A stretch of 6,113 nt of DNA from a virus (taxonomy: Duplodnaviria; Heunggongvirae; Uroviricota; Caudoviricetes). The stretch covers positions 1 to 6,113 of the IMG/VR virus record IMGVR_UViG_2541047961_000012. The stretch is one strand, 5' to 3'. Below, one piece after another: positions 259 to 6,113 of this stretch (its first letter is position 1; the number at the start of each line of letters is the position of its first letter). The notes under the pieces were generated by a model. The model did not search any database. It saw nothing but the letters and a program-made list of their open reading frames with translations, and had not been told where the DNA came from. The translations under genes and the position numbers were made by a program.

Positions 259-624
259 TTACTTCGTCATGCCATTCAGGGTGTCGCGGCAGACTGTAGC
301 CAGCCGCTGAATTTCCAGCACGGTGTCTTCTGTGTCGGCATGGCGATGTGTGATGCGGATGCTGTCGGCAATCACATCGACGATTGCAGAGGATGGGCGC
401 TGGTAAATGCCAATAACGGACGGGGTGCCGCCTTCAATGCGGTAAAGCCTGTAATTTCCCTCGTGGCTGTCAATCATGTAGCGGCCATCAATAACAATCT
501 TTCCGTCAGCGAGCTGCGGTACAGGCAGGGATTTCAGGTACATGTCATAACGGTCACGCACGCGAACGGCAAGATCACGCTCTGTGTTGAGCAGGTATTC
601 AAGAAAGTCGTTGGCGAGAATCAT
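259..624 (-). CDS. hypothetical protein (121 aa)
   Basis: ORF in track. SD AAGAGGA sits 9 nt upstream of the ATG at 624..622. Composition is protein-like, unlike the overlapping plus-strand frame, which is Cys/Arg-rich. No family recognised. Confidence 0.6.
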   Translation of the reverse strand: MILANDFLEYLLNTERDLAVRVRDRYDMYLKSLPVPQLADGKIVIDGRYMIDSHEGNYRLYRIEGGTPSVIGIYQRPSSAIVDVIADSIRITHRHADTEDTVLEIQRLATVCRDTLNGMTK

Positions 625-696
625 TGCGGCAATCCTCTTGTTACAGATGTGCGAAGGCCTCCCGCCGCAAGGTGCAGGAAAGGCCCGGAACAGGAA

Positions 697-927
697 TTAA
701 TGGAGTTTGTTTTGCTGCTGGATGAGATCCTGAAGAGACAGGAGGTCTTCCGCCAGATAGCTGAATACAGCGGCGCAGTAGTCGGCTGAAATAGTGTTGT
801 TGAGTCTGTGCAATGTGTTGGATTGCATGATAAAGGCGATGTGTGCAGCGCGGGTGAGTCTGCGATCGATTTCAGTCTGGATGTGACGACGCTCCGCGAT
901 AGTGCGGTGCTGTTTGCGGTTTGCCAT
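697..927 (-). CDS. hypothetical small basic protein (76 aa)
   Basis: ORF in track. SD AAGAGG sits 8 nt upstream of the ATG at 927..925. Arg-rich N-terminus (MANRKQHRTIAERRHIQ) could be nucleic-acid binding. No family recognised. Confidence 0.5.
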   Translation of the reverse strand: MANRKQHRTIAERRHIQTEIDRRLTRAAHIAFIMQSNTLHRLNNTISADYCAAVFSYLAEDLLSLQDLIQQQNKLH

Positions 928-1020
928 GGTGTGGCCTCTTTGTTGGTAAGTTTTGAATACTCACCATCCAGAGCTGCGAAACTGTGGGTGGCGAGACGTA
1001 CGAGGTTCGCAGTACCGGTC

Positions 1021-1056
1021 AACAAAGAAAACCCGGCCCGACCGAAGTCGGCCCCG
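1021..1056 (-). terminator. candidate intrinsic terminator (minus strand)
   Basis: Minus strand reads GGGGCCGAC-TTCG-GTCGGGCC followed by GGGTTTTCTTTGTT: a GC-rich stem with one mismatch, a UUCG tetraloop and a T-rich tail. Confidence 0.35.
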
Positions 1057-1106
1057 TACGCCCCACCATAATTCTGATGCGAAAAAATGTGCGGCAATGC
1101 GGTACG

Positions 1107-1234
1107 CACAAAAAAACCGCTGGCGCGGTTGTGCGCTTTGTTGATCAGCAGGCTGCGAAACCCGGCACCCGTTTTATGAGATGCAACGGAAATGTAACCT
1201 GACTGATTGCGGCATGGCAAGCGGTTTTTTTGTG
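1107..1234. repeat. 15-bp perfect inverted repeat pair flanking 98 bp (cacaaaaaaaccgct at 1107..1121; agcggtttttttgtg at 1220..1234)
   Basis: Exact reverse complements, checked base by base. Each arm carries an A7 or T7 tract. The left arm also forms a local hairpin (cgcacaa / ccgc-tggc-gcgg / ttgtgcg) that reads as stem plus T7 on the minus strand. Confidence 0.6.
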
Positions 1235-1247
1235 AGAACGGCATACT

Positions 1248-1298: not shown

Positions 1299-2129
1299 TT
1301 ACTTCACCGGAACAAACGGAACAGCGGTGTTGCTGGTCATGTATTGCGGCAGCGTGCCGTTCCATTTGTTGATTGCTTCCAGCTCCATAACGCCGGGATT
1401 CTGGCGCAGAGCTTCACCGCGTAAACGAATGGCGTCGGCTTCAGCCTGGGCTTTTGTGCGAATGGCATCAGCCTGTCCGGCAGCTTCTGCGCGCAACATG
1501 TTGGCTTCTGCTTCGCGTTGCTTGACTTCCTGTTCGCGTTGCAGGGTTTTCTGGTTTGCCGTGACTTTGGCATTAATGCTGTCGATAACGGTTGACGGGT
1601 ACTCCGGCTTACCCACATATGAGAGGCTCATTACCTGAATACCGATGGGTGTCATTTCCTCCTGAATGTCTTTAAGAGCTGCATCCAGTAGTTCAGATTT
1701 CCCGCCGTCGATAAATTTGTCGGTGGTCATTTTGCTGGCCAGTCGGTTGAGTGCATCGGCGATCTTCTGGCGCAGGTCAGTGTCGGTAATGTCATCCACG
1801 CCTTTGCGGTAGGTCTGAAACACTGTAGTAACTTTGGATGGATCAACCTTGTAGGCCACACCGATGTGATAGCCGATGGTTGTGCCGTCACTCATCTGGA
1901 AGCTGAACGGCTCATCGTAGGTCTTCATTTGTTTGAAGGTCGGGAAGATGTAAACCTCGGTATTCCAGCCAGTCCAGTAGCGGCCAACGCCAACCACTTC
2001 GCCGACGCCTTTGTCGTCGCCCAGTTTATTTACCTTGATGCCCACATTACCTGGCTCAACGCGATCGCAACCAACCAGCAGGATGGCGGCAAAAAGCGGG
2101 ATAATCTGAAAGAGTTTGAGTTTCTTCAT
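1299..2129 (-). CDS. SPFH/Band-7 (stomatin/prohibitin/HflKC-like) domain lipoprotein, 276 aa
   Basis: ORF in track. SD GAGGAAA upstream. N-terminal lipoprotein signal MKKLKLFQIIPLFAAILLVGC with lipobox LVGC, and Asp at +2 (CD...). C-terminal Ala/Glu-rich helical region with AEADAIR-type repeats typical of SPFH proteins. The start ATG (2129..2127) overlaps the upstream stop as ATGA. Family call is from motifs only, no HMM run. Confidence 0.8.
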   Translation of the reverse strand: MKKLKLFQIIPLFAAILLVGCDRVEPGNVGIKVNKLGDDKGVGEVVGVGRYWTGWNTEVYIFPTFKQMKTYDEPFSFQMSDGTTIGYHIGVAYKVDPSKVTTVFQTYRKGVDDITDTDLRQKIADALNRLASKMTTDKFIDGGKSELLDAALKDIQEEMTPIGIQVMSLSYVGKPEYPSTVIDSINAKVTANQKTLQREQEVKQREAEANMLRAEAAGQADAIRTKAQAEADAIRLRGEALRQNPGVMELEAINKWNGTLPQYMTSNTAVPFVPVK

Positions 2130-3829: not shown

Positions 3830-4180
3830 TTATAAATCAGCCTGTTTAATAAAACTTTGCCCGCGAAGCAGACGATCAACCGTGCGAAGTGCTTCGTATA
3901 ATGTGAAATCCTGTCCGAACTGATTGTCGCCGCAGCTCAATGAAAAAATGCGGTTTCCGGTAAACGGATTGCGTGGGCATTTGTGGACCACGATCCCGGC
4001 TTTCTCAATCAGCCAGGTATGCTCGCCGATTTGTTTTACTGGGTAGCCATCCGGCGTTGCGTGTGTTTCGCTCAGGCTGTAGCGAGAGCTGCTACGTGAT
4101 GCGCTGGTAGCGAAACGGTTAGCATGGCGTTCCGCACCGTTGCGGAAGCGCTGCTGTGAAGAATTGCGCCGTTCCTTCAT
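3830..4180 (-). CDS. hypothetical protein (116 aa) with a basic Ser/Arg-rich N-terminal region
   Basis: ORF in track. SD GGAG sits about 9 nt upstream of the ATG at 4180..4178. First gene after cox. No family recognised. Confidence 0.55.
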   Translation of the reverse strand: MKERRNSSQQRFRNGAERHANRFATSASRSSSRYSLSETHATPDGYPVKQIGEHTWLIEKAGIVVHKCPRNPFTGNRIFSLSCGDNQFGQDFTLYEALRTVDRLLRGQSFIKQADL

Positions 4181-4217
4181 ATCAAAATACTCCGCCTAAA
4201 ATGAGTTATGGTTTGAG

Positions 4218-4643
4218 TTATGCTGCTTTACCGCTGATGTTTCTGTTTCGTCTGCCACTTGTTGGCTTAAACAAAAACAGACGGTTTTCCCAGTCGTGCC
4301 ATTCCTGAGGTGCGTTTTCGATGAGGCGATCGCATGCTTCATCCCACGCTTTTCTGTTGATGTAGAGTTCAGCGTTTCCGCCTGGTTTAAGAGGGTCCGC
4401 CATATACACCGCAGGTAGCTTTCCTGCTTTGGCCATGCTTACGATGGCGTCAACGGTCTTTCCGATATACATCGCAAATCCTTCTTTTGACAGGAGATGC
4501 GAGGGATTTTCTGAAAGTCGAATTTCTTCACGTTCACGTGCTTTGCGTCCTGTTTTTTGATACTCCCCCTCTGGCATTTCTGACAGGCGATCGCATCGTG
4601 TTCCGCAAAGTGACTCAGGCGCGTTTTGAGTGCTTTCTTGCAT
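4218..4643 (-). CDS. cox: Cox/Apl-like excisionase-regulator homolog with a roughly 50-aa N-terminal extension (141 aa)
   Basis: Divergent from the C-type repressor. Core FAMYIGKTVDAIVSMAKAGKLPAVYMADP resembles the P2 Cox HTH region as I recall it. Strong SD GGAGG sits 8 nt upstream of the ATG at 4643..4641; the internal Met23 has no SD. Confidence 0.7.
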   Translation of the reverse strand: MQESTQNAPESLCGTRCDRLSEMPEGEYQKTGRKAREREEIRLSENPSHLLSKEGFAMYIGKTVDAIVSMAKAGKLPAVYMADPLKPGGNAELYINRKAWDEACDRLIENAPQEWHDWENRLFLFKPTSGRRNRNISGKAA

Positions 4644-4751
4644 CTGATATCCTCCGCTATTGGTGCTTTCTTCTAACTAGCACCATTTAGAACTAGTTAG
4701 CGCAATTCGTTGTGTGTTAATTGATGTATAAACTAAGTGAGTTAACTTACT
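4644..4751. promoter_or_regulatory. C/cox divergent switch region with operator-like dyads
   Basis: 108-bp AT-rich gap between divergent start codons. Inverted repeat CTAACTAG (4673..4680) / CTAGTTAG (4693..4700) with a 12-bp spacer. AACTAG direct repeats at 4675 and 4691. Dyad TGGTGC (4661..4666) / GCACCA (4680..4685). TATAAA at 4727..4732 preceded by TG. Exact promoter hexamers could not be assigned. Confidence 0.55.
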
Positions 4752-5051
4752 ATGTCAACTACCGTAGCTATGAAAATTCGCATCATGCGGAAGTCAGAAA
4801 TGCTTACACAAGAAAAAATGGCAGAGATTACTGGGCTTACTCTTGCTGCATTAAGGCAATATGAGCAAGGACGAAATGAACCCAACCTTGAGTCAACAAA
4901 AAAGCTTCTGAAAGCCCCCATGTTCCGTAAGTACCGCGACTGGTTTTTGTTTGATGAAGTTGAACCCAAGGCCGGGCAGGTTGTACCGGCTCTCGCACAC
5001 ATTGGGCAAGGCGAAGCGGAATCATCCCGCTCCGGCAAGAAGACTGGTTAA
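4752..5051 (+). CDS. C: P2 C-type immunity repressor (99 aa)
   Basis: ORF in track. Same length as P2 C, and the sequence (MSTTVAMKIRIMRKSEML...VPALAHIGQ...SGKKTG) closely resembles P2 C as I recall it, with an HTH near the N-terminus. Sits directly upstream of int on the same strand, as in P2. Confidence 0.85.
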   Translation: MSTTVAMKIRIMRKSEMLTQEKMAEITGLTLAALRQYEQGRNEPNLESTKKLLKAPMFRKYRDWFLFDEVEPKAGQVVPALAHIGQGEAESSRSGKKTG

Positions 5052-5117
5052 CGGTTCACCAGGCATTTATTTCCCAGAGCTGTGATCAAGATGATGTTTT
5101 CATTGGAGGGCTTCCTT

Positions 5118-6113
5118 ATGTCGATTAAGAAGCTCGCTAATGGCAAATTCTGTGTGGACGTGCGGCCAGCTGGATCAGAAGGAAAAAGATTCAGGCGGCG
5201 ATTTGATACTCGTGGTGAGGCTGTTTTGTATGAGCGTCATGTATTGCAGCATTACCACGACAAAGACTGGGTTGATAAGCCAACAGAACGGCGCTCGCTG
5301 AGGGAGTTGCTGGATTGTTGGTGGCTATACCACGGGAAAAATCATCCTTACGGTGCGATGGAGCGAGTGCGTATTTCTGCGGTCATTAGTGATCTTGAAA
5401 GTATTAATGTTACACGCAGCGACCAACTTACTCGTAAGAACATAATTAATTATCGGTTATTGTTGCTTAACCGCGGAATAAAACAATCCACGGTTAATCG
5501 TTATTGCGCAATGATGAGTGGTTTCTTCACAAAACTAATTGACGCAGAGGAATATTCTGGGGCTAATCCGTTTCATGATGTGAAAAAACTTAATATCAAA
5601 CAGCCTGAAATGGCTTATTTGTATCATGAGGATATTCCACGATTACTGGAGTTGTTATCTGGTGATGAATTAAAAGCTGTCTTGTTGTGTCTGGCAACAG
5701 GTGGAAGATGGAGTGAGGTTGCAAATATCAAGGGGGAGCATGTTATTAGCGGCAAAGTCATTTTTATGGAAACCAAAAATGGGAAGCGTCGCGTTATACC
5801 TATATCGTCAGAACTGGAGTGCATGATTAAAACAAAGGCCACTGGTCGTTTAATTTATCCAAGTTATGCCGCTGTCAGAGCTGCTATCAGAAAGGTGAGG
5901 CCCGATCTTCCTGAAGGGCAGTCGATACATGTTTTACGGCATACCTTTGCCACTCACTTCATGATTAATGGTGGGAATATCATCACTTTGCAGAGAATAC
6001 TTGGGCATAGCACTATTCAGCAGACGATGACTTATGCCCATTTTGCACCGGATTATCTGCAGGATGCTGTGCGCTTTAATCCTGTGGCTGAGTTGTCCAG
6101 ATATTGCCCATAA
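5118..6113 (+). CDS. int: tyrosine site-specific integrase, P2 Int-like (331 aa)
   Basis: Start moved from the track's 5082 to the ATG at 5118, which has SD GGAGGG 7 nt upstream and gives MSIKKLANGKFCVDVRP..., like the P2 Int N-terminus. C-terminal catalytic signature HVLRHTFATHF...GHSTIQQTMTYAH (H-x-x-R box and Tyr nucleophile). The stop TAA is the last 3 nt of the window. Confidence 0.9.
   Translation: MSIKKLANGKFCVDVRPAGSEGKRFRRRFDTRGEAVLYERHVLQHYHDKDWVDKPTERRSLRELLDCWWLYHGKNHPYGAMERVRISAVISDLESINVTRSDQLTRKNIINYRLLLLNRGIKQSTVNRYCAMMSGFFTKLIDAEEYSGANPFHDVKKLNIKQPEMAYLYHEDIPRLLELLSGDELKAVLLCLATGGRWSEVANIKGEHVISGKVIFMETKNGKRRVIPISSELECMIKTKATGRLIYPSYAAVRAAIRKVRPDLPEGQSIHVLRHTFATHFMINGGNIITLQRILGHSTIQQTMTYAHFAPDYLQDAVRFNPVAELSRYCP

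Follow-up and report, generated by a model that had tools for sequence, protein, structure and literature searches.

The window, by which we mean the whole 6,113-nt stretch of DNA analysed here, carries a gene whose product resembles the Cox protein of phage P2, and this gene raises two questions. The first is why the protein has 141 residues when P2 Cox has 91, and whether the additional residues are real. The second is whether an exact 12-nt repeat within the gene has any meaning. Our answer is that this is an ordinary and already annotated cox gene of a P88-type (Xuanwuvirus, P2-like) E. coli prophage, an assignment that we consider very probable; this judgement covers the explanation as a whole, the long-form cox gene together with the repeat as a coincidence.

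Identity and neighbourhood of the gene

Profile searches agree with the initial annotation that the protein is Cox-like. Pfam PF10743 (Phage_Cox) matched with 97.1 bits, for a cut-off of 27.5 (E 5.5e-28), positions 1-86 of the 87 in the profile lying on residues 40-120. PHROG 1831 ('transcriptional regulator', 121 positions) matched residues 23-134 at 1e-52. The only solved structure matched at the sequence level was that of P2 Cox, 4LHF (phmmer E 3.7e-6), whose residues 14-81 fall on residues 53-118 of the window Cox. None of the NCBIfam models matched the window Cox.

The window is 97.9% identical in DNA to phage P88 (Xuanwuvirus, Peduoviridae). The P88 counterpart, gp03 (YP_009113046.1), is a 426-nt CDS of equal length, annotated 'Regulatory protein, Phage_COX', and the genes for the C protein and the integrase adjoin it. 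The window protein is 98% identical to gp03 and to WP_001158283.1, which are both 141 aa long, with a DUF4761 gene downstream and C and integrase on the opposite side; it has Arg19 and Tyr28 where they have His19 and His28. The gene was found in about 30 of 5426 complete E. coli genomes, always with 141 codons, under the PGAP name 'Cox family DNA-binding protein'.

The coordinates of all features are given in Table 1. The cox gene (4643-4218, minus strand) stands opposite C, which is followed by int, both on the plus strand, and downstream of cox lie the early genes DUF4761 and PHROG 3800. The same order is common to P88 and E. coli prophages, and in P2 also cox is the first early gene, opposite the C repressor and adjoining int. 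The neighbourhood is the canonical P2-type switch.

Table 1. Coordinates of the cox gene, its parts and other features discussed in the text (positions are those of the window unless a locus is named).
Feature	Position	Strand	Remarks
cox gene	4218..4643	-	141 aa + stop; DNA-binding protein of the Cox family, long form; heads the early operon
Shine-Dalgarno GGAGG	4651..4655	-	+ strand CCTCC; 7-nt spacer to ATG 4643-4641
Acidic head, codons 1-29	4557..4643	-	net charge -4; hypervariable; predicted disordered
Conserved basic arm and linker, codons 30-50 (KTGRKAREREEIRLSENPSHL)	4494..4556	-	30-39 outside the Pfam model, 40-50 match its first positions
Winged-helix Cox core and C-terminal helices (predicted), codons 51-125	4269..4493	-	AlphaFold2 pLDDT ~90; 4LHF match
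Variable basic C-terminal tail, codons 126-141 + stop	4218..4268	-	dN/dS 0.39
12-mer copy 1, codons 17-20, in the head	4585..4596	.	exact match needs C at 4588 (Arg19 CGC); relatives have T (His19 CAC)
12-mer copy 2, codons 104-107, in the C-terminal helix	4324..4335	.	kept in the 96-99% clade, altered in the 81% relative
cox-C switch region	4644..4751	.	from sequence and alignment; symmetry elements, TAG-containing repeats 10 bp apart
Symmetry element TGGTGCT-N11-AGCACCA	4661-4685		immediately upstream of the cox Shine-Dalgarno
Symmetry element CTAACTAG-N12-CTAGTTAG	4672-4699		
C-type immunity repressor, 99 aa, HTH_3	4752..5051	+	ORF and profile matches; reads away from cox
Tyrosine integrase	5118..6113	+	996 nt as annotated in relatives; mechanical ORF begins at 5082
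C4 antisense RNA (RF01695)	984-1073 or 1110-1184 (first of the two in the order listed)	-	Rfam 77.8 bits, above gathering score
isrK Hfq-binding sRNA (RF01394)	984-1073 or 1110-1184 (second of the two in the order listed)	-	Rfam 66.4 bits, above gathering score
Long Cox in other E. coli prophages	L007 861-1217; L008 775-1146		118 and 123 aa, respectively as listed

Start codon

The 141-codon frame opens at the ATG preceded by GGAGG, which had been proposed as the start, and comparison with relatives indicates that this is the real one. The context GGAG(G/A)ATAnCAn-ATG is kept in the E. coli relatives and in 19 further loci of Enterobacterales (Erwinia, Yersinia, Pectobacterium, Rahnella, Serratia, Scandinavium, Pseudescherichia and E. 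albertii), and in many of these 19 an in-frame stop lies 1-2 codons upstream of the ATG. The first residues, MQExTQN, are conserved, and the reading frame stays open across heads of widely differing length, in proteins of 117-178 aa.

Databases also hold entries of 119 aa (P0010, P0012) and 91 aa (P0091), which begin at Met23 or Met58. Together with the poor conservation of the head, these entries would fit a mis-called start, with translation beginning at Met23 (119 aa) or later and the codons upstream forming an untranslated leader. However, Met23 has no Shine-Dalgarno (the sequence upstream is GATGCGATCGCCTGTCAGAA), and relatives have Ile, Ala or Thr in its place. Met58 is part of the invariant SKEGFA(M/L)Y helix, and most homologues have Leu there. 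The homologues have no start at either place. The conserved GGAGG, ATG and initial residues, the frame open through heads of unequal length with a stop often right before the ATG, and a dN/dS in the head of 0.42, that is, below 1, also stand against an untranslated leader. We regard a mis-called start as highly improbable. Since Met58 is mostly Leu within an invariant helix, and Met23 lacks a Shine-Dalgarno and is replaced in relatives, the 119-aa and 91-aa entries look like gene-calling artefacts, and the comparison points to 141 aa as the right gene model for the P88-type Cox. The predicted N-terminal peptide is MQESTQNAPESL... for the 141-aa form and MPEGEYQK... for a form starting at Met23.

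Fold of the core and comparison with P2 Cox

An AlphaFold2 model of the window Cox was computed from 52 homologues. In this predicted structure the pLDDT is about 90 for residues 50-120 and below 50 for residues 1-34. The elements follow each other as a strand (50-52), helices (53-60 and 64-72), wing strands (78-82 and 91-96) and a helix (97-110). Searched with Foldseek, the model had 4LHF as its best PDB match (E 4.6e-5, TM 0.70 normalised to 4LHF), followed by Xis and BldC-type winged helices. The model thus predicts a winged helix-turn-helix followed by C-terminal helices, as in 4LHF. A Cox-like core had been placed near residue 54, in keeping with the invariant S52-K-E-G-F-A57 and with the helix modelled at 53-60.

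P2 Cox (91 aa, 4LHF, PMC3936717) belongs to the same Pfam family and is likewise a winged helix with C-terminal oligomerisation helices. Compared to it, the window Cox has 39 aa more at the N-terminus and about 11 more at the C-terminus, and the two are about 28% identical over the fold. The DNA-contact residues of P2 Cox, R30, R51, R73, K75 and R78, fall on S69, N90, A111, Q113 and H116 in the HMMER alignment. The P2 cox-box TTAAA(G/C)NC(A/C), searched as TTAAASNCM with at most one mismatch, occurs 11 times in the window for 17 expected, and not once in 4644-4751. This suggests that the window Cox does not use P2-type boxes: with the P2 contact residues replaced and the P2-type boxes missing from the switch region, specificity and contacts would have to differ. 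The replacement argues for different contacts, not against membership in the Cox family. It is consistent with a comparison of Cox proteins (PMC3448106; Nilsson & Haggard-Ljungquist 2011) in which 'group 1' and 'group 2' have just six conserved residues in common.

P2 and W-phi Cox oligomerise through their C-terminal helices and bind arrays of direct repeats one helical turn apart; Cox represses the repressor promoter and directs excision (PMC3936717). By homology, the window Cox would oligomerise in the same way on direct-repeat arrays, the oligomer would shut off the C promoter, and the protein would act as an excision directionality factor. As the contact Arg and Lys of P2 Cox align with Ser, Asn, Ala, Gln and His, we propose that non-specific contacts with the DNA backbone may come from the basic arm (residues 30-50) and from the basic tail at the C-terminus, and that the acidic head may modulate DNA binding or serve as a spacer under weak constraint. 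PMC7498355 and PMC3936717 describe 186 Apl and lambda Xis as small (winged-)helix DNA-bending proteins which also use direct repeats about one turn apart and also control excision and the switch. These two belong to sequence families other than Cox, and searches with the window Cox gave no significant sequence match to them. Lambda Xis also differs in that its disordered tail is at the C-terminus, where it contacts Int.

The long Cox subfamily

The window Cox belongs to a subfamily of long Cox proteins (PHROG 1831), recognised by a conserved Shine-Dalgarno and ATG located 29-85 codons upstream of SKEGFA, an acidic head and a basic arm. In 115 homologue clusters, the number of residues ahead of the invariant SKEGFA ranged from 11 to 85, with a median of 44, compared to 12 in P2 Cox; if two 102-aa entries with 11 are set aside, the lowest value was 29. 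With 51 residues before its core, the window Cox is among the longest of the common forms. In an exhaustive search of representatives only 23 clusters at 50% identity reached E <=1e-3, and by this measure the long subfamily is small and confined to Enterobacterales.

A group of larger Cox proteins has been described before. The 'group 2' of PMC3448106 comprises larger Cox proteins with a predicted winged HTH, from prophages of Escherichia, Yersinia and Erwinia/Pectobacterium; like the window Cox, they are larger than P2 Cox. The text of PMC3448106 contains no list of the group 2 members. We infer that the P88 type is group 2, based on the fact that P. atrosepticum SCRI1043, the source of one member of the family (P0094), was among the strains of that work. 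A literature search for Xuanwuvirus, the Cox family and PF10743 gave nothing but unrelated 'COX' papers, and no experiment on the window Cox or the long subfamily was found. The long-form cox gene is already known, and its description here matters little beyond annotation hygiene. The Cox of P2-like phages has a long form, with an extension that is not known to have had a functional study. The acidic-head/basic-arm architecture and the missing P2 DNA-contact arginines are leads for work on the P88-type switch.

A long Cox that shares the SKEGFA core is also encoded by other E. coli P2-like prophages, whose early genes are the classical ones of P2 (replication protein B, DUF2732); the lengths are 118 and 123 aa (Table 1, last row). 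P88-type phages are therefore not alone in having the long form.

N-terminal head, basic arm and C-terminal tail

The length of the N-terminal extension had to be revised. The long N-terminus postulated in the initial annotation is real as far as the conservation described above can tell, but not its size of 50 aa: from the P2 Cox and Pfam alignments, whose coordinates are given above, the offset at the N-terminus is 39 residues, and the other ~11 of the 50 are found at the C-terminus, where residues 121-141 have a net charge of +6. The comparison of homologues indicates that the long N-terminus is a property of the whole subfamily.

Two segments can be distinguished in it. The head differs in length between homologues, and its net charge is negative in 98% of them. 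The basic segment always comes after it: residues 30-50 have a mean net charge of +3.3 in 117 homologues, and R38, L43, P47 and L50 are invariant or nearly so. Measured against the 81%-identical relative, the head has a dN/dS of 0.42 and the core one of 0.01; dS is 0.70 in the head and 0.84-1.06 in the remainder of the gene. Based on a dN/dS of 0.42 and a dS not below that of the other parts, the head is probably translated but weakly constrained, with no extra constraint on its DNA.

Acidic head and basic arm could form a functional module rather than a passive tail. The weak purifying selection on the head, its acidity in 98% of homologues and the basic segment that always follows are compatible with this, which we nevertheless hold to be unlikely. 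Such a module may be a DNA-mimicking, self-inhibitory segment setting the threshold for Cox filaments at the switch and attP; it may also be a docking site for the integrase, or for a satellite or host factor. If the module were real, the fast turnover of the sequence and length of the head would reflect tuning or an arms race.

Two other candidates in the head were rejected. Cys13 and Cys17 (CxxxC) were considered as a metal or redox motif, but they are not conserved even within the E. coli clade. An antisense ORF of 67 aa (4487-4690, plus strand), which overlaps the DNA of the head, is interrupted by stops in the 81% relative and is thus not a gene.

The 12-nt repeat

That the gene contains a 12-mer twice, coding for CDRL both times, with NAPE and NAPQ nearby and a palindrome with a Dam site inside, had been noted at the outset, and these observations are accurate. 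AGGCGATCGCAT occurs exactly twice in the window, with both copies in one frame, as C-D-R-L at residues 17-20 and 104-107. NAPE is at residues 7-10 and NAPQ at residues 110-113. The 12-mer contains the palindrome GCGATCGC, which includes GATC.

The two interpretations attached to these observations, a partial duplication or DNA sites embedded in the gene, did not survive comparison with close relatives, in which the repeat is missing. In P88 and in five of five E. coli relatives at 96-99%, the N-terminal copy reads AGGTGATCGCAT, containing GATCAC, with His19 (CAC) and not Arg19 (CGC). The 30 complete E. coli carrier genomes gave no exact match to a 54-mer around this copy. At the protein level, all of clusters P0001-P0007 have His19, Arg19 is found in a single partial entry (P0075), and members further away show Tyr, Gln or sequence without relation at this position. 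In the 81% relative, the two copies read TGCGATCAGTTG and TGCGATCGACTC, the common part being TGCGATC only.

We next consider how unusual such a repeat is. An exact repeat of at least 12 nt was obtained in 0.7-1.2% of mononucleotide or codon shuffles of the 426-nt gene. The 6.1-kb window contains three unrelated exact 12-mer direct repeats, and the 12-mer pair, nominally unusual for one gene, is for this reason unremarkable for a scan of the window. We propose that two unrelated sites encoded Cys-Asp-(His/Arg)-Leu, and that a single CAC to CGC transition lifted the match from 11/12 to 12/12. The exact repeat and the second palindrome would be the product of this one recent transition, carried by a rare allele, since the relatives have His19 and the 81% relative differs at both copies.

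A partial internal duplication or micro-conversion would have copied residues ~17-28 of the head (CDRLSEMPEGEY) from residues 104-115 of the C-terminal helix (CDRLIENAPQEW) in the E. coli P88 clade. When the N-terminus is locally aligned with the remaining protein, CDRLSEMPEGEY and CDRLIENAPQEW are indeed the pair selected, with a score of 28 (shuffle p=0.05), P0009 gives a score of 32 (p=0.015), and TGCGATC is present at both places even in the 81% relative. The similarity disappears when other proteins are taken: p was 0.57 for P0006, which has the common His19 allele, and P0008, P0013 and members from Salmonella, Erwinia, Pectobacterium and Yersinia gave no significant value. In all, 13 proteins were tested, uncorrected for multiple testing, and p was above 0.15 in the 11 others. 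Past the 12-mer, only about 10 of 24 bases match in the DNA (hand count). The motifs are not collinear either, as NAPE stands ahead of its CDRL and NAPQ comes after the other CDRL, and heads elsewhere in the family are unrelated in sequence. These alignments suggest a similarity around CDRL that is marginal rather than nil, and together with the absence of the exact DNA repeat from relatives they make a duplication very unlikely.

The other interpretation is that the two GCGATCGC palindromes with their Dam GATC are binding sites, or methylation-sensitive regulatory sites, for the switch. GCGATCGC is present 3 times in the window (4326-4333, 4587-4594 and 2061-2068) for 0.13 expected, and GATC is kept at both places of the gene in the 81% relative. 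One of the three copies is allele-specific, though: P88 and the five E. coli relatives that were checked have GTGATCGC, a broken palindrome, at the N-terminal copy, and there the window is matched by no complete genome. In the 81% relative both palindromes are gone (GCGATCAG and GCGATCGA), as they are in other family members. Synonymous divergence is not reduced in the head, and the window shows no enrichment of GATC (18 sites for 23.6 expected). Finally, the copies lie 48 and 309 nt into the coding region, away from the switch region. Embedded sites are in our view extremely improbable.

We conclude that the 12-nt repeat has no function and is a coincidence. Repeat, palindrome and Dam site come down to a single nucleotide and need no follow-up. 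The third GCGATCGC, at 2061-2068, lies inside an SPFH/lipoprotein-like gene (1299-2129, minus strand) and is also found in P88.

The cox-C switch region and the immunity mosaic

An identical Cox (WP_001158283.1) adjoins two operator regions and two N-terminal (HTH) halves of the C repressor, as seen when window positions ~4672-4935 are compared with loci L002, L004 and L005. What stays conserved across both immunity types is int and the C-terminal half of C. The breakpoints of this mosaic are just upstream of the cox Shine-Dalgarno and in the middle of C. As one Cox operates with two immunity types, we predict that the binding sites of Cox itself are in segment 4644-4700, which is semi-conserved.

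For a Cox of the P2 type, arrays of at least six cox-boxes, 10-11 bp apart, would be expected over the C promoter and in attP. The switch region holds TAG-containing repeats 10 bp apart, which both become TGG in the other immunity type. These repeats and the symmetry elements of 4661-4699 are candidate operators or Cox boxes. A scan of 4150-4850 for sigma-70 consensus promoters gave none, and a looser scan only two weak candidates. As for attP, it is outside the window; the P88 record is prophage-derived and attP is therefore split in it, and a search for k-mers shared between the ends of the P88 record (putative att flanks) and the switch region gave nothing meaningful.

An exact 10-mer, GTGCTTTCTT, is present twice, 33 nt apart (4630-4639 and 4663-4672), flanking the cox Shine-Dalgarno and start. 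The upstream copy is not conserved in relatives, and the pair is therefore probably due to chance.

Other observations in the early region

Two antisense or small RNA families are matched at 984-1184 (Table 1). The P88 annotation of the homologous stretch reads 'derepression protein' and replication endonuclease. From these matches, 984-1184 resembles the antisense-RNA immunity or antirepressor modules of P1/P4 style, here placed within a P2-like early region, and the mechanical ORFs there (e.g. 621-1244, minus strand) are probably not genes.

The distribution of sequences among E. coli genomes changes next to cox. The 5′ part of the DUF4761 gene (the first ~95 nt of the query, within window positions 4100-4217) is found at ~93% in 351 E. 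coli genomes, and cox in only ~30. This suggests a recombination boundary at the 3′ end of cox (4100-4217).
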